A DNA stretch of 32,523 bases from contig JAZRWV010000314.1 in assembly GCA_045599925.1 (NCBI GenBank), positions 1 to 32,523 on the forward strand, written 5' to 3'. Source of the DNA: Myxococcota bacterium. GTDB lineage: Bacteria; Myxococcota_A; Bradymonadia; UBA4248. Numbering within the stretch: position 1 is the first letter of the stretch; every line of letters begins with the position of its first letter. Shown in pieces: positions 874 to 30,009 of this stretch. Both the position numbers and the translations under genes were made by a program. The notes below the pieces were generated by a model, which saw only the letters and a list, made by a program, of their open reading frames with translations, ran no database searches and was not told where the DNA came from.

Positions 874-2625
874 TTAACTTTTTTGTGCAGCAAGCAACAG
901 CCGTCTGAGTTCGAGATTTACTTCGGTTAAGAAAAGCAGACTGTTTTTTGGGTTTGCGCCATGTTCGAGGAGAACGCGGACACATTCGGTTTTATTTTGT
1001 ATCGTGGCTGACTCTATAGGGCTATCCGTGTTTACATCAGCGCCGGCTTCAGCAAGCAGATCGATAATTTCCGGGGCATTATTTTGAACAGCCATTGTTA
1101 ACAACGGCCAGCCATTGAAATATATGTCGTGATAAACAGCATTTGGATTTGCACCTTTTTCCAGAAGAAGTCTGGTTGCGAGGGTGTCATACGTTTCGAC
1201 AGCCTTTAACAGTGCATCATCTAGTGACAATGCGCCATAAAGTCTGGCAAATTCAAAATCCTGATTGGTAAAAGTTTTGTTCAGATGACAGTAATGCCTG
1301 TTTATTAATTCGAGTGTTGTGAGCGGCATATCTCTGATATTCGTTAATTGATAATACAGTTCAATAATATCCGGGTTCTGTGAACTGAAGTACGTAGCAT
1401 TTTTAATGGCATCTGTGTGTATCAGTGCTAGAAAACACTTCAGATCATTAGAACTTAAGGTGATTTCGAATGGAGTAAGATAATCTCCTTTATAGTTAAC
1501 GTCAGCACCATTCATAATGAGCAGCTGCATTACAGCCGGAGCACGGTGATATGCAGCTTCCTGGAGTAAGGAAAATCTACTCGAGTTATGCTCAATCAGA
1601 AAATTCGCGTTTATACCAGATAACAACAGTTTTTGAACCTGAACGATATCATCTCGCCGGATTGCCTTTTTAATGGCTAACAATGGATTTTTTTCATAGT
1701 CATTCATGGTGTAGCCGTAGGGATTTACCACCGGATTATCACATGGAATGTCAGCACCTGCTATTTTGAGCTGTATGAGCAAAGCAATTTTTTGAGAATA
1801 GTCATCGGAATAGTCGTAGGGTGTTTTGCCGTCGGCATCCTTAATGTTGGGATTGGCCTTATGTTCCAGCAGGGTTTGGATGCATTCGACGGGGGCATTG
1901 TCGCGGATTAGCTTGATAAGAATCGGCGTGCCATCCGCAGAACGCGAATTGGGATCGGCGCCGGCCAGCAGCAGTTCTCTGATGATCTGTTTGGATTTTG
2001 CATAAAATAATGGGGAATTTCCAAGGGGATCCTTTTTATCCGGGTTTCCAATGTCCTGGAGTAATGTTCGAATCAGCATAACGTCGGGGGCGTTGTTTTG
2101 AAGTACCCAGGTGAGCAGAGGGGTTCCGTCGGATGCAAATGCGTTGGGGGTGGCACCGGCTTTGAGGAGTATAGAGGCAATTTCATCGCATTTTGCGTAA
2201 AAAAGCGGGGTTTTGCCGGATGAATTCAGAATGTTGACATCTGCGCCATGTTTGATGAATGAGGACAGTAAAGCCTTCTGTTCTGAAAAAAGCGAGCTGT
2301 CGAAGTTATGAGAAATCAGAATAGAAAGCGCTGATCTGCCGGTTTTGTCATGTACATTCGGATTGGCACCGAGTTCAAGAAGTGAATAAACGTATTGAAA
2401 ATCGCCGATATTTATGCCGTGTGTAATGGCGTGAATGAGAAGTGGTTCATCGTTCTTGGCCAGGGCATTGGGATCGAATGTATTATCATCGGAGCTGTCG
2501 ATGCCAATTTTATTGCACCATTGGATGAGCAGATATTTATCTGCGGACTGTATCTTTTTTCGCAGGCGCATAAAACCGAGACTTGCTGCAGATATCGTGA
2601 ATGCAATGATTGGGATAGGCAGCAT
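874..2625 (-). CDS. ankyrin-repeat protein with N-terminal membrane anchor
   Basis: 583-aa ORF. The N-terminus MLPIPIIAFTISAASLGFM is hydrophobic. More than 10 ANK-like units recur along the protein (G.TPL..A......(I/V)..LL..GA(D/N)(V/P)N), for example GADVNILNSSGKTPLFYA, GADPNSRSADGTPILI and GANPNIKDADGKTP. Confidence 0.9.
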   Translation of the reverse strand: MLPIPIIAFTISAASLGFMRLRKKIQSADKYLLIQWCNKIGIDSSDDNTFDPNALAKNDEPLLIHAITHGINIGDFQYVYSLLELGANPNVHDKTGRSALSILISHNFDSSLFSEQKALLSSFIKHGADVNILNSSGKTPLFYAKCDEIASILLKAGATPNAFASDGTPLLTWVLQNNAPDVMLIRTLLQDIGNPDKKDPLGNSPLFYAKSKQIIRELLLAGADPNSRSADGTPILIKLIRDNAPVECIQTLLEHKANPNIKDADGKTPYDYSDDYSQKIALLIQLKIAGADIPCDNPVVNPYGYTMNDYEKNPLLAIKKAIRRDDIVQVQKLLLSGINANFLIEHNSSRFSLLQEAAYHRAPAVMQLLIMNGADVNYKGDYLTPFEITLSSNDLKCFLALIHTDAIKNATYFSSQNPDIIELYYQLTNIRDMPLTTLELINRHYCHLNKTFTNQDFEFARLYGALSLDDALLKAVETYDTLATRLLLEKGANPNAVYHDIYFNGWPLLTMAVQNNAPEIIDLLAEAGADVNTDSPIESATIQNKTECVRVLLEHGANPKNSLLFLTEVNLELRRLLLAAQKS

Positions 2626-4043: not shown

Positions 4044-4299
4044 AAAACCTCTCAAAAAGGGACAACAAACAATGAAAATCATCATGAGGGATGTCCCAGT
4101 ACCCCTCAGAAACTGACCGCATAGTTTTACACCTTGTATTACCATGGCAACAACAGTTTTTTGCATGCAGGGCAAATCTATTGAGCTTTTATTTGCAATC
4201 TTGGTGCTTTTTCAAAAATGATTGACGATAACGAACAGTCACATTATGATATTACGGCCTTATTGTGGGCATAGTGAATCATCACTTATGGAGATTAAC

Positions 4300-6078
4300 A
4301 TGACAATGAAGAATCGCGGGATTCAACGCTTTTTAGCACTTGCTCTTATGGCTGCCGGCTTCGGCATTTTTTCTGGTTGCAGTCAGATTGATGTCAGCAC
4401 TGAAGAAGGTATGAAAGAAGCCCTCAGCTCAAGACAGAAACTCGATAAAGCCATCCCTAAAATTATGGGTATGTCAACTCGTCCGGAAGAAGTGAACAAA
4501 TACCTCGACGAACTGATTAAACTTTATGCCGATGGAAGCAGCTTTGACCGTGACGTCATTTCTGCAATTGCATCCTCAAAAAATAAAGACAAAATCCACG
4601 ACTCTCTCGTCAAAGCAGCTAAATCTCCAGACTATAAACAGGTCATGCAGGCTGCTATCGGCGCAAAATATACTGAAGATGCCGGTATCGTCGATATCCT
4701 TCTCAGCCGCTGGGATGATAAAAAAGTCGGTATCAATCCTGAAGTTCGTCGTGTCGTCCTCGAAACAGGTACTGCATTTAAAAATCCTGCCATCACTCAA
4801 AAAGCTATCGAAGTCCTCAACGGTCAGCTCGATGAAACACCTTTCGTCCTCCTCAGAACCAGCTGCGATGTCCTCGCATATCAGGCTGATCCCAATGGCC
4901 GGGAAACACTCATGAAGGTCGTTTATCATCAGGATGGTGTCGGACGTACTCTCACCACAAACTGCACTCGCGCTCTCCTCGCACTTGACAAATCTGATGT
5001 CGCGCCCCTGCTCCTCACAGCCTATAAGCTCGAAAATAAAGATCTTATGGCTTATGTCGAAGCTCATCCCGATACCCTCACTCCTGAATCCATTCGAAAC
5101 AACACCGCAAATGCCCTCGCAATGTATCGATATCAGGAAGCTATTGACCCAATGCTCGACTACCTCGAAAATACCAGAACTATTCCCGTTCCTGGCACCC
5201 TCGCCATTCGCCCAAATACTGACCCAGCATGGCAGATGTGGGCTGGCCTCGTCGGCGTCGCTGCTCAGTCAACCCTCTTCGCTATCAATGATATCGGCAT
5301 CCGAAATAACGAAAGAGCTAAAAAAATTCTCGTCGACATCTTTAACTGGACAACACCTTATCAGTCAAAATTCAAAAACGCCATCGAACTCACCGGTTCC
5401 ACAAATATCGAAGTTTCTCAGCGCGTCAACGCCTTCCGCGCTCTGCGCGAAAATGACCTCCTCTCAAATGCTGAAGTCCTCGCAATGATCGAAACCCTGA
5501 AAGGCGAAGAATTCATCGATGAAAGAACCTGGAGACCTTTCGCTCGCTCTTCGATCGGCACTGATATGGTCACATACTGCGCTGTGACTTCAAAACCTGG
5601 TGACACAAACACGATTTGGGCCGCTTTCAACGCCATGAAACAGCCTGATAAGGAATTCTATGTGCCTCAGGTCGCTGAAGGCGAAGTCAAGAAAGACCAC
5701 TACAATGACAACGTATACAAACGTATTGATGACGTTAAAGCCGCTTTTGAACTCGCTGATGAATGCCAGACAAATGTTGACTGCTATGCCGGAAAATTAA
5801 AACCCGATATGGACAGCTATGCAAGAGTCAGAGCTATATACGAGCTCGGTCTTTCCGGTGATCACAAATACTTTGAAACCGTTTGCAACGAATACAAGAA
5901 TCTTGATGTCTTCGGGCAGCTCTATGGCACAAAGGCTCTCGCCCTGCTCGGTACAAAAGACGATGTTCAGGCCATTAAAGACCTCAATAAAAAACTCGCC
6001 AGTGAAATGAATAACATTCAGTACATCGCTGCAAAACCAAACCTCGATGGCCTCGTTACTACTCTCGCTAATAAATAA
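4300..6078 (+). CDS. putative lipoprotein, predominantly alpha-helical, unknown function
   Basis: MTMKNRGIQRFLALALMAAGFGIFSG|CSQ is a lipoprotein signal peptide. GGAG (4290-4293) lies before ATG 4300; ATG 4288 and 4306 are alternative starts. The ORF is long with clean coding periodicity. I recognise no family. Confidence 0.75.
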   Translation: MTMKNRGIQRFLALALMAAGFGIFSGCSQIDVSTEEGMKEALSSRQKLDKAIPKIMGMSTRPEEVNKYLDELIKLYADGSSFDRDVISAIASSKNKDKIHDSLVKAAKSPDYKQVMQAAIGAKYTEDAGIVDILLSRWDDKKVGINPEVRRVVLETGTAFKNPAITQKAIEVLNGQLDETPFVLLRTSCDVLAYQADPNGRETLMKVVYHQDGVGRTLTTNCTRALLALDKSDVAPLLLTAYKLENKDLMAYVEAHPDTLTPESIRNNTANALAMYRYQEAIDPMLDYLENTRTIPVPGTLAIRPNTDPAWQMWAGLVGVAAQSTLFAINDIGIRNNERAKKILVDIFNWTTPYQSKFKNAIELTGSTNIEVSQRVNAFRALRENDLLSNAEVLAMIETLKGEEFIDERTWRPFARSSIGTDMVTYCAVTSKPGDTNTIWAAFNAMKQPDKEFYVPQVAEGEVKKDHYNDNVYKRIDDVKAAFELADECQTNVDCYAGKLKPDMDSYARVRAIYELGLSGDHKYFETVCNEYKNLDVFGQLYGTKALALLGTKDDVQAIKDLNKKLASEMNNIQYIAAKPNLDGLVTTLANK

Positions 6079-6197: not shown

Positions 6198-8420
6198 ATG
6201 CAGTTCCCAACCGCACCGATTTTGCCTTCAAATCCAATGATTTCACATCTCGAACTCGAACTCGAATGGCTGCGCGCTCTATTATTGGTCAGAATTCGAG
6301 AAATGCAGGCAACAGGCCTCCTGCCAGGTGCTGAAAACCTTCGTCCGGGAACTGTCGTTTATCCACAGGAAGTCGAAGCCAGACTCCATGAACAGGACGA
6401 AATTGCCAATGATCCAACACTCGATGAAGTCGAAGCAAAAGCTCGACTCGCTCAGGTCGAACACAAAAGAAGACAGTTCTATCGCGACCATACCGTCTTT
6501 GACACAACCGCCCCTCTCGCGTTTCTCAAACAACAGTACAGACTCGATGATGCTCAGTATCTCCTGCTGCTCATCGTCGCTGCTCCTGCTTTTAATCCAT
6601 CTTTTTCCAGACTTTACGCATTCATTCAGAACCATTTTGAACGCGATTATCCTACTCTCGCTCTATTTATCGAAATCTTTTCAAAAAACAGCAGAAATAC
6701 AGCCGGTCTAAACCGCCTCATTTCCCCGGGAAGCCTCCTCATCGGCGAAGGTCTTATCGAAATCCAATATACCTCAAGCATTCTGCCGCCGAACAAACAG
6801 CCTCTCACGCTTCCAATGCGAATCCAGTCATTTATCGGCGGCATCGAAATGATCGATTCAAGACTCGCTGCCTACACAGAACTGCGTTCACGACGATCGC
6901 TCAATACAGAAACGATGCTCACAGAAAGACAGCATCGAGAATGGTATTCCAGAATTGACAAAATTAGTGCACTCCTCCACACTGGAAAACAGCTTCCTCT
7001 CTGCTATATCACAGGCCCATCCGGTGCAGGAAAACGCCGTTTCGGTCAGGAAGTCGCCGCCATGCTCAACCGAGATTTGCTCTGCGTCGATATCAAAGCC
7101 GTTCAGGAATCGTTCGAAAGTTTTGCTTACGGTGTCAGTGTCGCATGCCGCGAAGCCATGCTCCACAACGCCATCGTCTGCTTTTATGGCTGGGAAACTC
7201 TGATACTCCCAACAACTGCAGAAGATGCGAATTTCCATGCACAAATCACAGCGCTTCATCTCAACGTCTGTCGTGTGCTCGATTCCATTCTCGCATGGCA
7301 TCCTCAAACCATCATCATCACCTGTCAAAATAGCGTTTCTTTCCCGCCTCGCCTCGATACTCGCAATGTCGAAGCTTTGCGCCTCACCATGCCCGATCAC
7401 ATTACGAGCCGAAAGTTGTGGGAAATCGCTCTTCCTCCGGAAAAACGCGACGAAAATTGCGATATCCAGGCATACGCCGAAAATTTCCATCTCACTCCAG
7501 GGCAGATTTCTGATGCCGTCTGCGTTGCTGCTTACGAATCTGAACCCTCCAACATCGTCAATACCGATCACATCATCGGCGCCGTCAAACAACAAATGCG
7601 GCACCGTCTCAGCGAACATGCCACACTCATTGAAAAAACCTATAAATGGGAAGATCTCATCGTCAACAAGGACGTCGAAATGCAGCTCCATGAAATCGTT
7701 TATCGATATCAATACAGAGCCCGCGTTCTTGACGACTGGGGACTCGGTGACAGATTCGGCCACGATATCGGCCTTTCCGCCCTCTTCGACGGCCCTCCGG
7801 GATCCGGTAAAAGTATGTGCGCTGCCCTCATCGCCAATGAAATTGGAATCGATATCTATCAGGTCGATCTTTCACGCGTCATGTCAAAATACGTCGGCGA
7901 AACCGAGAAAAATCTCGCCCAAATCTTCAACGAAGCCGAAAATGCTCAGGCTATGCTCCTCTTCGACGAAGCCGATTCTCTTTTCGGACAACGAACAAAC
8001 GTCAAAAATTCAAACGACAAATACGCAAATCTCGAAGTCAACTACCTCCTCCAGCGTATCGAACGTTTTCCCGGCGTCGCCATTCTGACCACAAACTTCC
8101 CGGCCGGAATCGATGAAGCCTTCGCAAGACGTCTTTCGCTTCGCGTTTCTTTCCCAAAACCTTCAAAAGCCGAACGCGCAAGACTTTGGCAGTCCATGCT
8201 TCGCTCTTCAAAACTTCCTAAAGGAAAAATCGATTATCGCGAACTCGCTACAGAATTTGAAATCACAGGCGGTTACATCAAAAATTCCGTCCTCAGAGCC
8301 GCTTTTATTGCCGCATCAACCAACGGCATCGTCGATCAGGACACGCTTTATCAGGCCGCACGCATTGAAATGAAAAGCATGGGCATGCTCGTTTCTCACA
8401 ATGATGAGGATGTCGAATGA
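6198..8420 (+). CDS. two-domain AAA+ ATPase (degenerate N-terminal P-loop domain plus canonical C-terminal AAA module)
   Basis: The C-terminal module has Walker A GPPGSGKS, Walker B LLFDEAD, and KYVGETEKNL...NYLLQRIE...AILTTN...D.AF.RR, all classic-clade AAA features. The upstream domain has GPSGAGKR but no acidic Walker B (AIVCFYGWE). AGAGG precedes ATG 6198. Confidence 0.9.
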   Translation: MQFPTAPILPSNPMISHLELELEWLRALLLVRIREMQATGLLPGAENLRPGTVVYPQEVEARLHEQDEIANDPTLDEVEAKARLAQVEHKRRQFYRDHTVFDTTAPLAFLKQQYRLDDAQYLLLLIVAAPAFNPSFSRLYAFIQNHFERDYPTLALFIEIFSKNSRNTAGLNRLISPGSLLIGEGLIEIQYTSSILPPNKQPLTLPMRIQSFIGGIEMIDSRLAAYTELRSRRSLNTETMLTERQHREWYSRIDKISALLHTGKQLPLCYITGPSGAGKRRFGQEVAAMLNRDLLCVDIKAVQESFESFAYGVSVACREAMLHNAIVCFYGWETLILPTTAEDANFHAQITALHLNVCRVLDSILAWHPQTIIITCQNSVSFPPRLDTRNVEALRLTMPDHITSRKLWEIALPPEKRDENCDIQAYAENFHLTPGQISDAVCVAAYESEPSNIVNTDHIIGAVKQQMRHRLSEHATLIEKTYKWEDLIVNKDVEMQLHEIVYRYQYRARVLDDWGLGDRFGHDIGLSALFDGPPGSGKSMCAALIANEIGIDIYQVDLSRVMSKYVGETEKNLAQIFNEAENAQAMLLFDEADSLFGQRTNVKNSNDKYANLEVNYLLQRIERFPGVAILTTNFPAGIDEAFARRLSLRVSFPKPSKAERARLWQSMLRSSKLPKGKIDYRELATEFEITGGYIKNSVLRAAFIAASTNGIVDQDTLYQAARIEMKSMGMLVSHNDEDVE

Positions 8421-9115
8421 ACGACCCAAATACGCCACACACCGAATTCCTGCGCGATATCCAATCATGGGTCTGGAAGCGCTTTCCAACGCGTCAGCTC
8501 TCCGCAACTGATATATTTTATGCGCTTCAGTGGGCCGAATCCGGCGTGCCGTTCTGTATTTTTTCCGACGGTTTCGAAGCCTGGCTACACACTCATCCAC
8601 TTGAATTCGTCAAATCCGGCAATCTGTCCGATCTTCATTTCCAAGCAGACCGCATTATCAAAGCCTATCATCAGCATATTTCATCTGCACCAGATACAAC
8701 ACCGACGATCGTCGACGATCCATACGACACCGCACTCACACGAATTGCCGAAGTCGGAAAAAAAACAAAAAACCCACTTCTACGCGACGAATTGCGAATA
8801 TTTTATCAAAATATGCTCATTTCCCGCACAGAGGCCAGAAAACTCTATCCCGACTGGAACCAGCGCTCCGAATCGTTTTATCCCCTTAAAGCTCGCGCAA
8901 TCATCGACTGGGACAAAGCTCTTAAAACACTTCTTCAGCATTGCTTTTCCATGCTTTCCGAGCAGGAACAGACACACCTCAAAAAACTTGCGCCTGTCGA
9001 TGAAATTCACTGCATGAAAATTGGCGAAGACGCACAATATATATATAAAACTCGAATTCTCAATCAAAAAATTGCTGATTATTTCGAAATTTCTGCACTC
9101 ATAAAAAGTTTATAA
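8417..9115 (+). CDS. hypothetical protein translationally coupled to the AAA+ ATPase
   Basis: ATGA overlap: start 8417 and ATPase stop 8418-8420. 232-aa ORF with no motif I recognise. The overlapping alternate-frame ORFs are shorter and compositionally poor. Confidence 0.65.
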   Translation: MNDPNTPHTEFLRDIQSWVWKRFPTRQLSATDIFYALQWAESGVPFCIFSDGFEAWLHTHPLEFVKSGNLSDLHFQADRIIKAYHQHISSAPDTTPTIVDDPYDTALTRIAEVGKKTKNPLLRDELRIFYQNMLISRTEARKLYPDWNQRSESFYPLKARAIIDWDKALKTLLQHCFSMLSEQEQTHLKKLAPVDEIHCMKIGEDAQYIYKTRILNQKIADYFEISALIKSL

Positions 9116-9125
9116 TTTTTTATAT

Positions 9126-9210
9126 GCCGCGCTATCGGCCTTAAAAGGCCGATACGCTGCGGCTGGTTCGGCTATTTATACTTTTGCTTCGCAAAAACTA
9201 TAAATACGCC
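9126..9210. repeat. two REP-like hairpins after the coupled ORF
   Basis: First: GCCGC-GCTATCGGCC-TTAAAA-GGCCGATACGC-TGCGGC (9126-9163). Second, nested: GGCTATTTATA-C-TTTTGC-TTC-GCAAAA-AC-TATAAATACGCC (9170-9210). Confidence 0.55.
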
Positions 9211-9218
9211 TCACCTTA

Positions 9219-9250
9219 TATAGGCTCCGCTTCAACACCATCGTTCTTAG
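9219..9250 (+). repeat. 32-nt direct repeat, copy 1
   Basis: TATAGGCTCCGCTTCAACACCATCGTTCTTAG matches 9451-9482 at 28 of 32 positions. A second shared block (CCTCTGAACAAAAC versus CCTGCTGAACAAAC) follows each copy. Confidence 0.6.
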
Positions 9251-9450
9251 GGAACCTCTGAACAAAACAATATTTTAAGGCACTAATTGAAGAGAGCCGA
9301 GTGGGGCCCCGGCGAGGCAAGATGGTTAGGCACCGCAAAATGCTTATAGATCTTTAAGATATTACGGATTCTTAAGGGCTTAGCCCTTAAGTGGAGTTTG
9401 GGGCAAAGCCCCTGAAAAATAAAGCTATTAATTTTTATTCAGAGTTTCCC

Positions 9451-9482
9451 TATAGGATCCGTTTCAACGCCATCGCTCTTAG
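9451..9482 (+). repeat. 32-nt direct repeat, copy 2
   Basis: TATAGGATCCGTTTCAACGCCATCGCTCTTAG, offset 232 bp from copy 1. Confidence 0.6.
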
Positions 9483-9537
9483 ATGACGCACGGTCTGATA
9501 CCTGCTGAACAAACCTACGCCATCTCATTTCCCCCTC

Positions 9538-9565
9538 TTGCAATCATAACAATTAGTGCTATAAA
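9538..9565 (+). promoter_or_regulatory. candidate sigma70-type promoter for the giant-lipoprotein array
   Basis: TTGCAA (9538-9543), 16-nt spacer, TATAAA (9560-9565), about 105 nt upstream of ATG 9671. Motif match only. Confidence 0.3.
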
Positions 9566-9574
9566 AATACGTTG

Positions 9575-9630
9575 AAGCGCTTCCAGCTTCCAAATACGAA
9601 GGGTTATTTGGAGTTTGAGGCGCTTTTTTA
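9575..9630 (+). promoter_or_regulatory. terminator-like leader hairpin (possible attenuator, or the 3' end of an intergenic RNA)
   Basis: Outer stem AAGCGCTTC (9575-9583) pairs with GAGGCGCTT (9617-9625) with 1 mismatch. Inner stem CCAAATA (9590-9596) pairs with TATTTGG (9605-9611). A T6 run (9624-9629) follows. The structure sits between the candidate promoter and the RBS of the first giant gene. Confidence 0.4.
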
Positions 9631-9670
9631 TTATCTGGCAAATAGTTAGGTAAATCGAGTGGTATCAGCA

Positions 9671-12600
9671 ATGAGAAGAACGAAATTCGCAAGCATTATT
9701 TCAATTCTGGCGCTTATTTGGGCAACCGGCTGTTCGGATAATGAAACTCACAATCCAAGCAATCCGCCTGAAGATGATGCCCCCATCGGCCCAGGCGAAG
9801 AGATTGTGTTGGATACCTCAAAAAGCATTAACTCATGGTCCGGCTGCATGATTGATGCTGACTGTACAAACGGTGCTTTCTGCTTTCAGGGACAATGTGT
9901 CGTTCAATGCAATGAATCCATGACATGTGACTCTGGATATGCCTGCCAATTGTCGAGAGGGCGATGCGTAAACGAATCATTCCTGCAGAATATCGCCGAA
10001 GCTCTGAAAATGGATACACCTGAATCCCCCATGTCACCACAGGAAAAAGCCATGATATTGGCAGAGCTTGATTTACAGGCCGCACAAAATTCAGATGTTC
10101 GTTACTCTGTTTTAGGAAAGAAAAACGAAGCTGGTGAAAAAATTCAGAATGTCGAGTTCATTAAGCGTCTTCCTTATGAAATTCATCGTGAAAATGCAAA
10201 AACAGGCCTATCCTTTGAAGTTCGCAATTCTGTTGGACCTGTATTTTATGCCGTTAAAACATCGGAAAATTCACTGCCCGTTTTGAAAAAAGTCAAAGGT
10301 ATTCGCACCGCAAACGGTAGTTATCAATACACACTTGATGTGAATGCGGATGAAGCTGTCAGATCGTTAAAACATCTTCAGCGTGATGGCGGAGAACTCG
10401 ATACTGTTGAACTCGATATCGTCACCAGTGTGGGCAACGAATCCGTACTTCTTTCCGAAACACCTTCAATAAGCAGAATTTATTCTGGAAAGGTTGTCCC
10501 TTTCAGTGTGCTTTCTGGAATAGATTTACCCATCAGAATGGCTATCGAAGTATTTCCGGATGATGTTCATAATTTTGACGAAATACAATCGATAAAATTG
10601 TATTTGCCTGTCAGTGATACTGATATATTTTCACCGGAAAATGTAAAATCGACAGACACTATAACAGAATGGACCAGCGTCAATATTGCTCAAAAAGACA
10701 ATGCATCAAACTGCACAAACGGAAAAGCTTGTTTCGCAGCCGTTTTTTCTACAAATGACTTCGTTTCTGCTGGCAGTATGATTTTATCAAAAGATGATCA
10801 TGTCAATCGCAGCATCCGTCTGGAAATTGATAGCTTTGACGCAGAAAATACGACATTTTCCGGTATTATTACCGATAAGTTTGAAGGCTTTTTCAGAGAA
10901 TCCGCTTCGAGCAATATCAGTAATGAACAACAACAATGGAATGTCACTCAACTTGGCGGTTATTTTAAAGTTGTGGGTACATCCTTATTGCCGGAAGACT
11001 TGAAAAGTCACAACCATGCGGCAGAAAACTTAAAAATGCGTGACATCAGTGAAGCTTCTATTCAAATTTGTTCGGGCGATGATGTTTCAGCATTGATGAA
11101 ATATATCAAAACTTCATGGACTGAAGGATGCAATGGATTGGAAGAAAATGATGCTTTGTTGTGCCAAAAGTATCAGACTTGTAAGAATGTGGATAACTTA
11201 GCCTCTTATGAAGCTCTTTCTTTGGATGATAGATTGTTCTGTGTTCAAGCTGCTGTAAATGAAATCTTGTTGGATAAAACTCGCGTTTCCTATGTTCTCG
11301 AACAGGTACTTGTTTCTGATGCTTCTGGAAAAGAAAATACCGAAGAAATTGAAGTCTGCGGTAGAAAGATAAACAATTTTGAAGACTTTCGAACAGCTTG
11401 TGCCGATTCAAACTGTAATTTGTGCAAAGAACGACCCGAATTATCATGTGCAAGTGATTTACTGGCAAAACTGTATAAAGAAAATAAATTATTGGATTCT
11501 GATGCAAAATCCAGTCTTGCAAGCAGCTGGATAAACATGATGAAGGAATCATATATTGCGCAGCAATATCTTGCCTGGAATCAGGATACAGAAATCCGAA
11601 AGTCATGGCTTACGGGAGCTTCCTATTCCGGTACATTTGCTGCCGCAACGATGAATTCTCATAACAAAACACTGCTCAAACGGTATCAAAGCGAGGTTCT
11701 CGACGTTCAGCGAAGTGTCTTGAGGAAGCAGTTTGTTCAGAGTACACTTGAAATGCTTTCGCACAGTACTGCCGACGCTGATGCCACAAATGTGAATGAG
11801 TTCAGTTCTCTGCGCAATCGAATACTCAGTGATCTCTCCAGTTGCTGGGAATCCGCGGCAAGCAGTCTTGGTCTGGCCGCCAAACGATACGATGTCCTCA
11901 TTCAGAATGACAGCGAACGCCTTTCTGCCGCAGCTGAATTAAGACCTGTTCTCTTTGATCTCTATTTTAGTGGTTTGATCGCTTCAACAATCAATCTTAA
12001 AGCAGATCAGGGATCATTAAATGGTGCATTTGGGGCAAATCTCTCCAGCGCAATCGGTAAGCTCAGTTCGTTGGATCAACCTTTTGAAAATCTCGTGTTT
12101 TCACGAGATGGGGAAATTTTTACCGATACACGACTCGAAACTGATAGCGACGAAACAGCTCTGGGAAGAGTCAAGTCTGCTGCAGAATCTTCAACTAAAA
12201 AAGCAGAACAGAAACGAACGGATGTTTTTAACGCCATCAATGCACAAAACCAGGAAATCCTGACCATTAAAGATGGGTATATGAGCTCTCTTGAAAATAT
12301 GAGAACTCAAATCGTCAATTTATGCGGATATCCGTCAGACTGTTCAACTTCAGAACAACGAAAAACATGTCAGCTATTTACGGCACCTTTTTTCTGTGGC
12401 TTAGCGATACCATCTACGGATACAACTGGTGTCGATCTTTCCAAATTTGAATCTTCTACACATGAATTGGCACAGGCATCGATTAGTCAGGTTTCCGATT
12501 TAAATAATTGTCTCGAAAAGTATTCGCATTATGAAGATGGAACACTCTCTGAAATGAGTGAAACGGATATTCATTCGTGTTTTGGATATGATCTGAACGA

Positions 12601-14740
12601 TATCAGTCTTGCATTGAGTACTGATGTCGAGGGTAATATCAGTAAAGCAGGCTTAGCTATTCAGGAGCTCCGTCAGGCAATTTTAGAATATGAGACTTCT
12701 CGCGCTGAATATCAAATCCATCTTCAGAAAGTCAACAATACCTATGAAACTCTAAATGCATATGCAGAAAGTCTTTCAGAACAATTCACCAATATGGCAG
12801 ATACTCTTTCTGCAATTGAAAATAATCTTACCACGATTAAACAGTATGAATCTGCAATTGCGAATTACCAAATTAAAATAAATGATGAAAAAACATCAGC
12901 ATTAAAAGCAGAATATCACAATAAAGTTGCCGATTTGGCCCATTGGGCTTTCGTTCAGGGAGTTGGCGGCATCTTCAATGGCGTTTATTCTGTTCAGGCA
13001 TTAAAAAAAGCTTTTAATATGATGGAATCCGAAATGAGCCATCGCGGTGATGAGCTGGAAAGGGACGCGGCAGCAATGAACAGCCGAACATCATCCGCAC
13101 TTATGGATTATATAGGTTTTACAACAGCAATTGACGCCATTTCTCGCGCTAGCATAAATTATTATACATTCAATCCAGCAGCCCCACAGATAGTCGTTCA
13201 AGGTTACGGAAGTGTCGTAGATGTAGCAGCTCAAATCGGTACATTTATCGACTTATCGATAGAACTTTCTGATAAATTCATATTTAGCAAAAAAGCTGCA
13301 CTGGCCACAAATGCAAATGAGCTCGTCAAATCAACGTTTAACCTCGCAACAGGTGCTTTAAATAAAGGAATGAGTATAAGTGCAGCCAATACTCAGGCTG
13401 AACTGGCCGAAACAATCAGCAAACTTAAGTCTGCAGTCACACTTCACAAAGAACAATGTGAAGGCAATTCCTCTGCAGCATGTACCGAATCCCAAAGTTT
13501 GAGCAGCGATGAAATGACCAATCTGATTGCTGATTTGGAACGCCAAAATCAGCTTTTGCTCAAACAAATCGAATATGAAAATGAAAGAAATCATGCACTT
13601 GAGGAACTGGAACTCGGCCGCAATGCTCTTTTGAATGACACACTCGATTTACTCGACTTTGAACGCATGGTTTATATCAAAGACCTCGATGTGGCTCAAA
13701 AACACTTAGAATATCTTAAAATTGCTCAGGATGCTTCAGAACTGGCAATGCAATTTAACAACAAACTGGCAAGATTTAACACATATCGTGATTTAATGGG
13801 TTCTGCATCGAGCTTCTTCCAATACGCTGCAGATCTCGAAGACGTCGAAAAATATATGGAATATGCAAGAAATGATCTTTCTGACTATCTTGCAGCCATT
13901 GAATATCTAACCGTTCGTCCATTTGTGGACCTGAGACGTTCCATATATACGGCTCGCGGCACAAATGATTTGAACATGATTTACAAACAATTAAACGATT
14001 TAACAAATCGCTGCGGTTCCGGAACTCGCTCGCAGAATCAAATAAAGCTTTCTGTTCGCAATCGTTTAGGTCTTGTCGATGATGAATTTGGTGGCATTTC
14101 AGCTGAAAACAAGATGATGTTAAACACTCGAAGTGGCCAAATAACATCAGATGCAGAACTGCGATATGTCAAAAATGAAGAACTTTCAAACCTGATATCA
14201 AACGGCAAATATTTAAGCTCTTCATTCTCACTTACACCTAAGCTTGCAAATATTTCGAATTCATGCGACGCCAAAATCGATGAAATTCAAGTGCGGCTCG
14301 TTTCCATGGAAGGCAAAGCGCTTCGTGAATCTGCGAATAGTACCCCAAAAATCATCCTGATTTATGGCGGTCAAAGTCAATTGATGTCGTGTCACGATAA
14401 AATCGATGCGATTGCATCATCCATTGGAACTCGCACAACATACGGCAAGTATTCCACATTCCATTCGGATCCGATTTCCGGCGGTTTAAATGCCGGTGTG
14501 TATGAAGTCCAGGCTGGCGAAAAATATGCCCTCTCTGATAGAACTGAATTCACAGGAACGACATCCTATCTTGCCCTTAGAGGATATCCGCTCATGGCAA
14601 CATACAGCATCATGATCGATCCCGAAAGTGGCGAAAATCCAAATATTCACTGGGAAAATCTGGCAGATATCGAAATTCAGATCTCTTATTCAACTGGTAC
14701 TCTTGGTTCCGATAGCAGTGTCTGTAACTACGATTTATAA
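9671..14740 (+). CDS. giant lipoprotein paralog 1, unknown family
   Basis: Uninterrupted ORF; GTG 9659 is an alternative start. MRRTKFASIISILALIWATG|CSD is a lipobox signal peptide. It carries the 8-Cys module (9845-9967), a long helical region, and a C-terminal module shared with paralogs 2-4. It aligns along its full length with the next three ORFs. Confidence 0.9.
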   Translation: MRRTKFASIISILALIWATGCSDNETHNPSNPPEDDAPIGPGEEIVLDTSKSINSWSGCMIDADCTNGAFCFQGQCVVQCNESMTCDSGYACQLSRGRCVNESFLQNIAEALKMDTPESPMSPQEKAMILAELDLQAAQNSDVRYSVLGKKNEAGEKIQNVEFIKRLPYEIHRENAKTGLSFEVRNSVGPVFYAVKTSENSLPVLKKVKGIRTANGSYQYTLDVNADEAVRSLKHLQRDGGELDTVELDIVTSVGNESVLLSETPSISRIYSGKVVPFSVLSGIDLPIRMAIEVFPDDVHNFDEIQSIKLYLPVSDTDIFSPENVKSTDTITEWTSVNIAQKDNASNCTNGKACFAAVFSTNDFVSAGSMILSKDDHVNRSIRLEIDSFDAENTTFSGIITDKFEGFFRESASSNISNEQQQWNVTQLGGYFKVVGTSLLPEDLKSHNHAAENLKMRDISEASIQICSGDDVSALMKYIKTSWTEGCNGLEENDALLCQKYQTCKNVDNLASYEALSLDDRLFCVQAAVNEILLDKTRVSYVLEQVLVSDASGKENTEEIEVCGRKINNFEDFRTACADSNCNLCKERPELSCASDLLAKLYKENKLLDSDAKSSLASSWINMMKESYIAQQYLAWNQDTEIRKSWLTGASYSGTFAAATMNSHNKTLLKRYQSEVLDVQRSVLRKQFVQSTLEMLSHSTADADATNVNEFSSLRNRILSDLSSCWESAASSLGLAAKRYDVLIQNDSERLSAAAELRPVLFDLYFSGLIASTINLKADQGSLNGAFGANLSSAIGKLSSLDQPFENLVFSRDGEIFTDTRLETDSDETALGRVKSAAESSTKKAEQKRTDVFNAINAQNQEILTIKDGYMSSLENMRTQIVNLCGYPSDCSTSEQRKTCQLFTAPFFCGLAIPSTDTTGVDLSKFESSTHELAQASISQVSDLNNCLEKYSHYEDGTLSEMSETDIHSCFGYDLNDISLALSTDVEGNISKAGLAIQELRQAILEYETSRAEYQIHLQKVNNTYETLNAYAESLSEQFTNMADTLSAIENNLTTIKQYESAIANYQIKINDEKTSALKAEYHNKVADLAHWAFVQGVGGIFNGVYSVQALKKAFNMMESEMSHRGDELERDAAAMNSRTSSALMDYIGFTTAIDAISRASINYYTFNPAAPQIVVQGYGSVVDVAAQIGTFIDLSIELSDKFIFSKKAALATNANELVKSTFNLATGALNKGMSISAANTQAELAETISKLKSAVTLHKEQCEGNSSAACTESQSLSSDEMTNLIADLERQNQLLLKQIEYENERNHALEELELGRNALLNDTLDLLDFERMVYIKDLDVAQKHLEYLKIAQDASELAMQFNNKLARFNTYRDLMGSASSFFQYAADLEDVEKYMEYARNDLSDYLAAIEYLTVRPFVDLRRSIYTARGTNDLNMIYKQLNDLTNRCGSGTRSQNQIKLSVRNRLGLVDDEFGGISAENKMMLNTRSGQITSDAELRYVKNEELSNLISNGKYLSSSFSLTPKLANISNSCDAKIDEIQVRLVSMEGKALRESANSTPKIILIYGGQSQLMSCHDKIDAIASSIGTRTTYGKYSTFHSDPISGGLNAGVYEVQAGEKYALSDRTEFTGTTSYLALRGYPLMATYSIMIDPESGENPNIHWENLADIEIQISYSTGTLGSDSSVCNYDL

Positions 14741-14834
14741 GCCAGGATTCAAATATCTTCGGCTTTTGAATGACTAAATTTAAGATTTTTTGAGAATCCG
14801 AAACGAATCCATGATTCGTGATAAGAGGAAAATA

Positions 14835-17800
14835 ATGAGTAAGACAAAACTTATTTGGGCATTATCAATTCTGACAATGGCATTGGCAGGCTGTTCGAAT
14901 GAATCCTCACCGTATGAGCCACCTCAAAATGACGATCCGGTTTCTCCAATCGTCATTGACGATGATGGGATGTCTGTTGACAACGCACTCCATTCCACCC
15001 ATGGCTGCTTGATCGATCACGACTGTGCGGAAGGTGCTTTTTGCTTTGAAAGCCAGTGTGTCGTTCAATGCAACGACGAATTGTCGTGCAATGAAGGCTA
15101 TGCATGCCAGATCGCGCGAGGGCGCTGTATCCGCGAAGATTATCTCCAAAACCTCGCAACTGCTATTCAAAACCTTGATAACAACAGCACTGATATGCCG
15201 CCGGAAGAAGTCGCACTTGCCAAAGCTGTACTCGACCTGGAAGCCGAAGAACATTCAGAAATCAGTCAGGCCCAGAATGAAAAAAAGGCTCTTGCAATTT
15301 CCGATTTTATCAGCCGTATTCCTGCTGGCATCACACTGGATCCTCAAAACAATAAACAGCAAGTGAGCTTTAGACTTCGCAGTGACTATGGCGTCATCTA
15401 TTATGCCGTTAAAACGGATGATAACAAACTGCCAATACTGAAAAGAGCCAATTCTGTTAAAACAGTCGATGGTGACTACGAATACACATTCGAAATCGAT
15501 GCAGCTGAATTGCAAATTCAGAAAACAAGCCTCTTGCGTGATAATAAAGAAACATCATCAAACACTGATGTCAACATTGTTTCCAGCATTGGAAACTCCA
15601 ATCTCCTCGTGCTTGATGCACCAGAACTAAACGGCATTTACACTGGTCACGTCGTTCCTAAAGAAGTCTTATCCGGCATCGACTTGCCAATTCGAATGGG
15701 AATTAAAGTCAATCCAGAAGACGCGCGTAGTTTTGATGATATCAAATCGATGACACTTATGCTTCCCGCCAGCAATGCAGACGTTTTTTCACCCGAAAAT
15801 GTCGCGTTGGACAACAACGGAAAAGTGAAGGAAACCTGGGCCAGTGTCGAAATTGCTCAAAAAGATGATGCTGCTTCATGCCGAAGTGGAATGCCCTGTT
15901 TTGCTGCCGTGTTTTCGACCAACGATTATGCTCCGGCAAACAGCCTGCTCCTGGATGAAGACCGCCATGTCAATCGCAATATCCGAATCGAAATCACTGG
16001 AATGGATGCCACTGATCATAAACTTACCGGACAAATTATCGACCGACTCGACGGCATTTATCGCGAAGTGACGGATAGAGAAAATCCATCCGATGAAATG
16101 AATTATCGTTGGAATTCCACCGAAATGCATGGTCTGCTCTCCGCCAAACTGTCGAATGAAATCGATATGGAAAAAATGTCGGTTCATTCCCATTCGCCTG
16201 CTGCTGAAAAAATCCGCGATATTGCTGAAGAACCAGATTTGAACTGCACTGATGCTCAAGTCGGCGAGTTGATGTCGCTTATCGTCAGTCCATACAAAGT
16301 GGCTTGCAATACACTGACGGATGAAAATGATATTGCATTGTGCAATCAGTATGTTGAATGCACCGGCATAAACAGCATTGCAACATGGGAAAATGCGTCA
16401 GACGAATACAAATACTTTTGTTTGAACAAAGCCATTGAAGCCATCCAGGCAGATGAAAGCCGGGTTTCTGCCGTCTTAAAAAATGTTCTCATTTCGGATG
16501 CATCATCCGCTGAAATCAAAGATCTCAAGGTTTGTGATAAAAATGTCAGCAATTTCGAGGACTTTAGAACACTTTGTGCTGATACAACATGCGATCTTTG
16601 CAAACCTCATCCTGAGTACACATGTGCAGCGGATTTATTGTCACTTCTTTATCGAAATGACAAAAGTCTGAATACAGAGGACAAAACGGCGATTGCTCAG
16701 AATTGGGTTTCCATGATGAATGAAGCCAATCTTTCCGAACAGTATCTTGCCTGGAATCAGGACATCGAAATCCGAAAGTCATGGCTTACTGGCGCTGTGT
16801 ATGAAAACACTTTTGCCGAAAACGTAATGAGTACCTTTAATACGGGGTTACTCAATCGCTACCGCTCAGAAGTCCTCGATGTTCATCACACCATTCTTCA
16901 AACGCTGACCCATCAGAACATTCTGGAAATGCTTTCTATCAGCAATGAAGATGCAAAAGACAATGGCATTACGGAACTGAGTTCCGCGCGCAACGAAATT
17001 TTAAACCAGATTGCGACATCCTGGACAAATCTGTCAGATTCACTCGGATTGATGGCTCGCCGATACGACGTATTATCTCAGGATGACATGGAACGCGTCA
17101 CAATTGGTTCTGAACTTCGTGCCTATCTGTTTGATTTATATTACGTGGGGCTTGTCGCATCTCATCTCAATTTGAAGGCAGATCAGGGTTCCCTTAACGG
17201 TAGTTTTGGTGCAAACCTCGCCTCCATTATGGAAAAGCTGGAATCTCTCGATCAGCCATTTGAAGACCTCGTCTTTATGAGAGATGGCGAAATCTTTACC
17301 GATACACGCCTCGAGGACGGAAGTGATACAGCCCTCGGACGGCTTAAAACAACGGCTAAAACAGCTGTCGAAAAAGCAGTCAGCAAACGCACGGAAGTTT
17401 TTAATGCCATCGAAAAGAAAAATGCCGAACGCATTTCAGCCAAAGACAGCTATTTGAGCTCGCTGGAATCCATGCGAACAAAACTGGTTGATTTATGCGG
17501 ATATCCGGCTGACTGCAAAACCGCAAAACAGCGAGAAAACTGTCAAATCTTTACAGCCCCATATTTCTGCGGTTTTGCATTGGATTCCCTCGAAACCGAG
17601 GGCGTCGATTTAAGTGAAATTGCCAAAGCTGATACCGCCCAAACGATATCTTCCGTTAAACAGATTGATAATTATTACGATTGCATTTTGAAAAATTCCA
17701 AACTGGACCAGGATGGAAAGATCGAAGCATCAAACGTTACTGAAGAAACTTATGAAAAATGTCTTGGGGCCGGAATTGGAAATGAGACCATCCCTGTAAG

Positions 17801-30009: not shown

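Follow-up and report, generated by a model that had tools for sequence, protein, structure and literature searches.

What are the four giant lipoproteins encoded one after another on a contig of a Myxococcota bacterium (GenBank assembly GCA_045599925.1, contig JAZRWV010000314.1, positions 1 to 32,523; this whole 32,523-nt stretch is called the window below)? None of them has a significant match in Pfam, NCBIfam or PADLOC, and an earlier note, made from the sequence alone, had described a tandem array of no recognisable family and without any hallmark of the toxin complex (Tc, or ABC) toxins. In our view the array is likely to code for compact TcA relatives with a lipid anchor (TcA is the membrane-penetrating translocator subunit of Tc toxins), because three lines of evidence converge: predicted structure, a profile-profile match and gene context. 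The C-terminal region, where the resemblance lies, very probably corresponds, by homology or analogy, to the TcA channel and docking module.

Predicted structure and profile match of the C-terminal region

Paralog 3 of the array (P0003) was modelled with AlphaFold2 as two overlapping pieces, using a 19-sequence family alignment. The C-terminal model (residues 840-1632, 793 residues; mean predicted local distance difference test score, pLDDT, 73) runs from a non-regular, cysteine-bearing segment into a hairpin of long helices, the far end of which is of low confidence, and then through a near-invariant helical motif into a beta-rich domain. In a Foldseek search of the PDB, the top 21 matches of this model were all TcA (E = 2e-11 to 5e-6, probability 1.00, ~540-650 columns) and comprised chains of XptA2, XptA1, TcdA1 (prepore, intermediate and pore), TcdA4, TcaA-TcaB and YenTcA; the first match of another kind was a generic coiled coil at E = 5e-3. 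This gap of 8-9 orders of magnitude between TcA and other coiled-coil proteins argues against a trivial match of helices. Furthermore, the ~540-650 aligned columns exceed the ~400-residue channel, so the beta-domain was probably included in the match.

Sequence profiles point to the same place. The comparison set consisted of SepA (Serratia plasmid pADAP) and TcA C-terminal sequences with PF18276, and when a family profile of 54 sequences was compared by hhalign with a TcA C-terminal profile of 20 sequences, a single co-linear match resulted (E = 0.0026, 164 columns). This match pairs the C-terminal beta-module of the family with the TcB-binding domain (the PF18276 region) and reaches a shared terminal DIxLxIxYT (family ..DIELQIKYT.., TcA ..DIILHIRYT..); against the C-terminus of the single SepA sequence, the value was E = 0.09, not significant alone. 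The profile match is unconvincing by itself, but it is independent of the model and placed exactly where the structure predicts, and we therefore regard this sequence signal as weak but concordant.

Conservation within the family is unevenly distributed along this region: the docking end is its best-conserved part and the channel tip its least conserved. The hairpin terminates in the near-invariant motif FFQYA.DLE.VE.YIE.ARNDLSDYL.A.EY.TVRPFVELRRSIY, which is 77% identical between paralogs (residues 1321-1400), and the EY.(A/T)VRPF motif is nearly invariant among 54 diverse family members. Identity at the tip, presumed to be the membrane-contacting end, falls to 20% between paralogs and 47-59% between orthologs, and Gly/Ala-rich tip segments occur in most family members. 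Ahead of the hairpin, the ~105 residues of P0003 891-995 (36% paralog identity) occupy the position of the TcA linker, at the boundary of helical domain and channel, yet carry 4-6 conserved cysteines; we infer that this segment may be functionally equivalent to the TcA linker.

Family members and their gene neighbourhoods

A word-indexed search of 5.8 billion proteins recovered only ~19 relatives. When 1.84 billion cluster representatives (50% identity) were searched exhaustively by HMMER with a profile of the C-terminal ~1,100 residues as query, 166 of them matched at E <= 1e-3, and 129 of these reached E <= 1e-30. Full-length members are nearly all 1,400-1,700 aa; all members are metagenomic or from metagenome-assembled genomes (MAGs) and annotated 'hypothetical', and taxon labels, where present, read Myxococcota, Bradymonadia, Polyangiales or 'Deltaproteobacteria'. 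The G+C (GC) content of family loci ranges from 41% to 72%. One distant member (P0125 at L014, JGI Ga0484953_001643; 24% identity) has neighbours that differ from those in the window. At three loci (L020:2304-11327, L026:6082-10292 and L031:1-1888), family genes are split into two overlapping open reading frames (ORFs), reflecting either frameshifts (pseudogenes) or assembly errors.

The survey of gene context covered the DNA of 30 distinct loci, of which 11 came from look-ups and 18 from a metagenome scan with a narrower alignment than the 54-sequence one; the remaining locus was the window itself. TcB/TcC-type genes occur at two of the 30 (L011 and L012). The family members concerned, P0122 and P0089, lie on two contigs of one 'Deltaproteobacteria' MAG, and each is followed on its own strand by a giant TcB/TcC-type gene, at a distance of 100 and 59 nt, respectively. 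A Pfam re-scan of the L011 protein (2130 aa) found SpvB, FG-GAP, TcdB_toxin_midN and RHS_repeat, and precomputed Pfam hits give the same four domains for the L012 protein (at least 1517 aa). Judged from these domains, the proteins downstream of P0122 and P0089 are TcB/TcC-type (BC) cocoons in the classic A→BC order. A hidden Markov model (HMM) built only from the near clade of the window matches P0122 and P0089 co-linearly over their full length (E = 1e-89 and 5e-166), and since these matches cross all modules, the two proteins are true members of this architecture. Both linked BC proteins (L011:14607-20999 and L012:13373-17924) begin with Sec-type signal peptides (...TSTALA-DF and ...ATPVMA-DV), and the whole system thus appears to be Sec-exported.

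With these results, the view that the array lacks any Tc hallmark no longer holds, given 21 top structural matches to TcA, a profile match to the TcB-binding domain and the A→BC order of two members. The description as a family without recognisable relatives stands for the N-terminal ~890 aa and for sequence libraries, and fails for the C-terminal ~40%. A TcA structural match over most of the length had been named beforehand as evidence against that description; the match found is confident and confined to the C-terminal ~40%. The accompanying guess of a toxin, pore former or contact-dependent weapon pointed in the right direction.

A different gene is the usual neighbour. Cysteine-rich giants of 900-1,750 aa, secreted or lipoproteins, directly adjoin family genes at 17 of the 30 loci, usually just downstream and on the same strand (Table 1). 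Their sequences show a MopE-type 'CxDxDGDG...DCDD' motif, and their C-terminal region is rich in Gly. A C-type lectin domain is present in one of them, and no PDB relative was found for these giants. The 8-Cys module type of the array proteins (DUF7107-like) recurs in these neighbours, and the family HMM matches it in the cysteine-rich proteins of L001. Two other identities for the giants were rejected: they are not divergent family members, since at L001, L006 and L015_c the family HMM matches only the shared cysteine module, and they do not appear to be disguised BC cocoons, since they have no RHS, SpvB or FG-GAP matches and BLAST did not relate them to SepB, SepC or the BC proteins of L011 and L012. 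The cysteine-rich giant is likely a functional partner, as targeting subunit or cargo. Neither the window nor the orthologous contig of a related Myxococcota MAG (48 kb, described below) contains one; the fifth family copy of that MAG, at a separate locus, lies among several cysteine-rich giants, so that the organism of the window plausibly encodes partners elsewhere.

Points against a TcA relationship and two alternative readings

Several results weigh against a relationship to TcA. By Pfam, Foldseek and hhalign, nothing in the N-terminal 55% (~890 aa) resembles the shell, the neuraminidase-like domain or the receptor-binding domains of TcA, and no TcA-sized protein was found among the 166 matches of the exhaustive search. 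There is no HMMER-level similarity to TcA: Pfam PF18276, PF18413, PF03538 and PF20220 are unmatched, and the family profile retrieved no TcA from PDB sequences at E up to 10. The model was built on a shallow alignment of 19 sequences, with pLDDT < 50 at the tip, and the Foldseek TM-scores are ~0.2, a poor global superposition, though such low scores are expected when extended hairpins (200-Å-class) are superposed. For the profile match, hhalign assigned a probability of just 11%. Tip loops of TcA are described as hydrophobic and highly conserved (PMC11435725); the tip of the family is instead hypervariable, and a clearly hydrophobic tip is unsupported: the median of its best 19-residue hydrophobicity is 1.2, versus 1.31 for the remainder of the protein. 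Finally, no TcB/TcC gene was found in the window, on the 48-kb orthologous contig or at 28 of the 30 loci.

Alternatively, the proteins could be unrelated to Tc, namely surface adhesins, S-layer-like proteins or envelope scaffolds whose coiled coil and beta-domain mimic TcA only in the model. The missing profile-HMM link, the shallow alignment with its low TM-scores and the unmatched N-terminal half all speak for this reading. We consider it very improbable, as generic coiled coils score 8-9 orders of magnitude below the 21 TcA matches, the profile-profile match, which owes nothing to the model, is co-linear on the TcB-binding domain, and TcB/TcC genes follow two family members in their classic order.

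Another possibility is that the proteins are stand-alone alpha-pore-forming toxins, with a TcA channel fold and no cargo partner; they would act just by making the membranes of prey or competitors permeable, and the four copies would represent four membrane specificities. TcA alone forms pores and can be toxic, the variability of the family sits at the channel tip, and the scarcity of BC genes noted above also speaks for this reading. However, the docking-type domain and the motif preceding it are the most conserved parts of the proteins, which would be hard to account for if no conserved interaction existed; BC cocoons share an operon with two full-length members; and a second large protein is a near-constant neighbour. 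A pore acting by itself is therefore unlikely, and a translocator related to TcA remains our preferred reading.

The N-terminal half

Lipobox signal peptides are present in all four array proteins (for example LTAGC-S, followed by a Pro/acidic linker), and almost every full-length family member has a hydrophobic leader followed by Cys. Among the array proteins the 8-Cys module is invariant (it spans C59...C99 in protein 1), and family proteins hold ~30 conserved cysteines. The N-terminal AlphaFold2 model (residues 45-1000; pLDDT 76) comprises a Cys-knot, a two-helix hairpin, beta-sandwiches and a large all-alpha domain. In the predicted structure, the beta-sandwich region is a candidate receptor-binding or shell part, and the all-alpha domain a candidate for the shell, though not detectably TcA-like. 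Foldseek of this model against the PDB gave nothing at E < 1e-3 and no TcA in the top 50, and hhalign against SepA and the TcA profile found no match in the all-alpha domain or anywhere outside the C-terminus. A ClyA, Hbl, Smh or XaxB fold was considered and rejected: SmhB and PaxB appeared only at E ~0.1 (probability <= 0.2) with the N-terminal model and were absent from the matches of the C-terminal model.

The family is invisible to sequence-profile libraries. PF18518 is likewise unmatched in the four array proteins, a Pfam hmmscan of the four at E up to 1 found neither internal repeats of the RHS/YD, RTX or Ig/cadherin adhesin kinds nor an RHS core or the beta-barrel of an autotransporter, and six distant family members have no Pfam matches either. 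HMMER profiles against all PDB sequences yielded coiled-coil noise only, and the only PHROGs match, to a family of unknown function, was marginal (E = 0.0016).

Table 1. Coordinates of the array genes, of features within paralog 3 and of the cysteine-rich giant genes beside family members. Nucleotide positions refer to the window unless a locus is named.
Feature	Protein residues	Position (nt)	Strand	Basis or remark
Paralog 1, lipoprotein, TcA-like family	1689 aa	9671..14740	+	TcA-like C-terminal region ~aa 992-1689 (window 12644-14737)
Paralog 2	1688 aa	14835..19901	+	TcA-like C-terminal region ~aa 997-1688 (window 17823-19898)
Paralog 3 (P0003)	1632 aa	20061..24959	+	Copy used for the AlphaFold2 models
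Paralog 4	1645 aa	25072..30009	+	TcA-like C-terminal region ~aa 989-1645 (window 28036-30006)
Paralog 3: type II (lipoprotein) signal peptide	lipobox LTAG-C21	20061..20123	+	Read from sequence; Pro/acidic linker aa 22-55 next
Paralog 3: 8-Cys knot module	aa 56-100	20226..20360	+	Cys invariant among paralogs; small beta hairpins in the model
Paralog 3: beta-sandwich region	aa ~171-455	20568..21425	+	Blocks LSGIDLPIRM, CFAAVFSTNDF, VNRNIRIE; AlphaFold2 pLDDT mostly 80-90
Paralog 3: all-alpha domain, Cys-rich at start	aa ~478-892	21492..22736	+	Blocks QYLAWN.D.(E/D)IRK.WL, ADQGSLN, LVFMRDGEIF
Paralog 3: mostly non-regular segment	aa 891-995	22731..23045	+	LCGYP.DC...C...CGF cysteines, then a variable acidic stretch; few secondary-structure elements at model residues 53-156
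Paralog 3: antiparallel alpha-helical hairpin, TcA-like pore-forming/translocation channel	aa ~996-1392	23046..24236	+	AlphaFold2 helices of 68-74 residues; Foldseek
Paralog 3: hypervariable channel tip, Gly/Ala/Ser-rich, moderately hydrophobic	aa 1096-1233	23346..23759	+	Lowest-identity region; e.g. FAGLVGASVGATAVSAQMI
Paralog 3: C-terminal beta-rich module, TcB-binding-domain-like funnel/docking domain	aa ~1398-1632	24252..24956	+	Ends ...DIELQIKYTTG...C.YD; AlphaFold2 pLDDT 80-90
Cys-rich giant family		L001:5296-9753, L006:5020-10233, L011:5637-9946, L012:189-8354, L015:11420-15892, L019-L036		

Four copies and their retention

The four same-strand ORFs were confirmed at the coordinates given in Table 1 and align end to end with 42-47% pairwise identity, far above chance; the gaps between them measure 94-159 nt. 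For genes 1 and 2, the longest ORFs begin further upstream (GTG 9659 and TTG 14790), and the downstream ATG starts (9671 and 14835) yield proper signal peptides. The seven shared elements listed in the earlier note are all present, with blocks it called invariant proving near-invariant in copy 4 (ILSGISLPIRM, CFATVFSTNDF and KVNRNLRIE) and copy 1 (LVFSRDGEIF). Its statement that the proteins are not built from internal repeats was borne out by self-BLAST, which gave no off-diagonal matches. Divergence among the paralogs is concentrated in residues 101-275 and the channel tip, and the pre-funnel motif and C-terminal domain are the most conserved.

The related Myxococcota MAG has the same four genes in the same order on its 48-kb contig: P0004, P0005, P0006 and P0018 are 68, 70, 74 and 71% identical to paralogs 1-4, respectively. 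Since these ortholog identities (68-74%) exceed those between paralogs (42-47%), the quadruplication predates the split of the two organisms, each of which has kept every copy. The flanks of the array are unrelated between the two: RecBCD-like helicases lie upstream in the related MAG, and in the window the array is preceded by HEAT, AAA+ and 232-aa ORFs and followed by a truncated kinase and a transposase. The array itself (window 9001-30000) has a GC content of ~0.39-0.46 versus ~0.43-0.51 in the upstream genes, and this lower value together with the non-syntenic flanks suggests that the array moves as an island. Multiple copies recur beyond these two organisms: tandem copies occur at 7 of the 30 loci (four in the window and its ortholog, two in five others). 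Many family members are single-copy (L005, L007, L008, L014 and L037).

One-to-one retention of four copies fits either a hetero-oligomer or a variant repertoire. In the former, the four paralogs would be obligate partners, co-assembling as a mixed ring or larger envelope structure, one machine; their preserved order as 1:1 orthologs, the short gaps on one strand and the existence of multi-chain A components in split (type II) TcAs are all compatible with this. We nevertheless find an obligate hetero-oligomer quite improbable: many family members are single-copy and others paired, which implies that homomeric assembly must be viable, the related MAG keeps its fifth copy at another locus, and known TcA rings are homopentamers (5:1:1 with TcB-TcC) or 5+5 assemblies of split halves, not paralog mixtures (PMC11435725). 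The copies differ most at the tip and the N-terminal variable region and are alike in the docking end, a pattern that fits a repertoire, though a mixed ring is also compatible with it.

Surroundings of the array in the window

The AAA+ ATPase gene upstream of the array (window 6198-8420; 740 aa) encodes an N-terminal winged-helix (PF22977) and an IetA/IteA-like anti-phage AAA module. A 232-aa ORF (8417-9115), for which no homologs were found, begins where the ATPase gene ends, its start overlapping the stop codon. An association of this ATPase with the array, raised in the earlier note, was not conserved and is rejected: the gene is absent at the orthologous locus, and an AAA+ gene lies nearby at only one of 29 other loci, where the resemblance is limited to the generic AAA module. 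The ATPase gene and the 232-aa ORF are not conserved beside the family, and this pair may thus be a module of the defence type that has no connection with the array. Further upstream lie a 583-aa protein with many ankyrin repeats (window 874-2625, - strand) and a 618-aa HEAT-repeat protein (window 4222-6078); eukaryote-like repeat proteins of these kinds (ankyrin, HEAT) are uncommon in bacteria.

In the 555-nt gap upstream of gene 1 (9116-9670), a 32-nt motif, TATAGGnTCCGnTTCAACnCCATCGnTCTTAG, occurs twice (at 9219 and 9451), against no copies expected by chance, and it is absent from the 37 other loci. The same gap holds an 18-nt direct repeat at 9387 and 9604, and the two pairs of repeats suggest an imperfect ~220-230-nt duplication. 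Promoter and terminator scans did no better than chance, and an Rfam scan gave no match. Downstream, a Ser/Thr protein kinase ORF (window 30332-30871) is truncated after ~179 aa, leaving only the N-terminal part of the kinase domain, and is followed by a DDE transposase (window 31010-32458); the arrangement resembles an insertion-sequence (IS) insertion at the downstream edge of the array.

Comparison with known systems

To our knowledge, all structurally studied TcAs are ~2,300-2,500 aa proteins of one or two split chains from gamma-proteobacterial pathogens, and the classical Tc components (TcA, TcB and TcC) lack signal peptides. Multi-copy A genes are also found in classical Tc loci. No paper on a lipoprotein or myxobacterial TcA was found in the literature.

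With TcA (P. luminescens TcdA1, X. nematophila XptA1/XptA2, M. morganii TcdA4 and S. entomophila SepA), for which we used published domain definitions (PMC11435725), the family shares a pore-forming hairpin and a C-terminal beta-rich domain of the TcB-binding type, preceded by a candidate linker segment; in TcA, the alpha-pore-forming domain consists of long antiparallel helices that a loop connects and that make up the translocation channel (PMC11435725). A TcB/TcC cocoon gene directly after two family members is a further likeness. The differences are equally plain: family proteins (~1,450-1,700 aa) are ~900 aa shorter than the classical ~2,300-2,500 aa, carry a lipoprotein signal peptide and ~30 conserved cysteines, and have an unrelated N-terminal shell in which no VRP1, neuraminidase-like or TcA_RBD domains were detected. 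Their tip is hypervariable where that of TcA is conserved, their usual neighbour is a cysteine-rich giant rather than BC, and their genes often stand in tandem arrays. The host phylum also differs: the family is found in Myxococcota, whereas a 2021 TcC census recorded mainly gamma/beta-Proteobacteria and Firmicutes and did not mention Myxococcota. The family belongs to the Tc/ABC-toxin world and is not a categorically new system, yet it is clearly divergent in its compact size, Sec export and lipid anchor, shell, hypervariable tip, constant partner, tandem repertoires and phylum.

Split type II TcAs (Y. entomophaga YenA1/YenA2 and Y. pseudotuberculosis TcaA/TcaB) resemble the family in their smaller channel-bearing chains, and YenA2 and TcaB-containing chains were among the Foldseek matches (6ogd_B, 9c4k_B and 6rwb_A). 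Unlike them, each family protein joins a shell-like N-terminal half and a channel in a single chain, and the tandem genes are full-length paralogs rather than complementary halves. YenTcA recruits separate accessory proteins (chitinases) for targeting (PMC11435725), a role that the cysteine-rich, lectin-containing giants could play here. YenTc is released by lysis dependent on a type 10 secretion system (PMC10847048); no holin or endolysin cassette was found in the window.

Bacterial teneurin-like proteins (TLPs) and other YD/RHS-shell toxins of Myxococcota are comparable in phylum, in being predicted signal peptidase II lipoproteins that are possibly surface-displayed, and in belonging to the Tc/RHS toxin world (PMC13018210). 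Raoelijaona et al. (2026) stated that these Myxococcota TLPs have no obvious delivery machinery (PMC13018210). TLPs are BC-like cocoons rather than channels. Neither a TLP gene nor a YD-shell gene was seen beside the array in the window, and the BC proteins near P0122 and P0089 are of the TcB/TcC type, not the TLP type; a functional link between the family and TLPs is speculation. ClyA and the tripartite alpha-pore-forming toxins (SmhABC, AhlABC, XaxAB/PaxB) likewise combine a long helical bundle and membrane-inserting head with paralogous components side by side, but they are ~350 aa proteins without a C-terminal docking beta-domain.

Proposed mechanism and significance

If the four genes do encode TcA-like translocators, each protein would leave the cytoplasm through Sec for an oxidising compartment, receive its lipid at the lipobox Cys and be sorted most likely to the outer membrane or cell surface, as the lipobox, the Ser at +2 and the ~30 conserved cysteines suggest. 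The C-terminal ~640 residues would form a helical-hairpin channel capped by a beta-rich docking/funnel domain, as in TcdA1, XptA2 and YenTcA, and the N-terminal ~890 residues (Cys knot, beta-sandwiches, helical domain and Cys-rich linker) a family-specific shell that replaces the TcA shell and receptor-binding domains. By analogy with TcA, protomers would assemble into a ring, probably a pentamer; a trigger would drive the channel tip into the target membrane; and a partner docked on the C-terminal domain would feed an unfolded toxic polypeptide through the channel. That partner would be a TcB/TcC-type RHS cocoon in at least some members, and the cysteine-rich giant lipoprotein, the constant neighbour at most loci, may supply targeting or cargo. 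The four copies could then constitute a repertoire of translocators with differing target specificities and a common partner encoded elsewhere, and their likely use would be the killing of prey or competitors by a predatory Myxococcota lineage.

A bolder version of this proposal, which we hold only tentatively and think rather doubtful, is a Sec-exported, lipid-anchored, Tc-like injection system of predatory Myxococcota in which a compact TcA-like ring is tethered to the outer membrane or to vesicles and, upon contact, delivers toxins into bacteria nearby. Instead of a classical TcB/TcC cocoon, the partner usually docked on it would be the cysteine-rich giant lipoprotein, or alternatively the YD-shell/teneurin-like lipoproteins, which are abundant in the phylum and have no known delivery machinery, and the arrays would be specificity repertoires built on the hypervariable tip.

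Tc toxins are a model for syringe-like protein translocation and are under development as insecticides and protein-delivery tools. Profile libraries miss this family entirely, and structure prediction and gene context were needed to reveal it; its lipoprotein nature and size would surprise a Tc specialist. A second unannotated giant family is flagged here as a likely partner. If the TcA relationship is true, a family that is ~40% smaller, Sec-exported and lipid-anchored, with an unrelated shell and a hypervariable tip, and confined to predatory Myxococcota, would widen the picture of TcA, show which parts of the machine are truly essential (channel and docking domain) and offer a much smaller engineering scaffold. 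The family also offers a concrete candidate for the route by which RHS/YD-shell toxins of myxobacteria might pass a target membrane, and, again if true, Tc-type translocation would reach into conflict between bacteria or predation.

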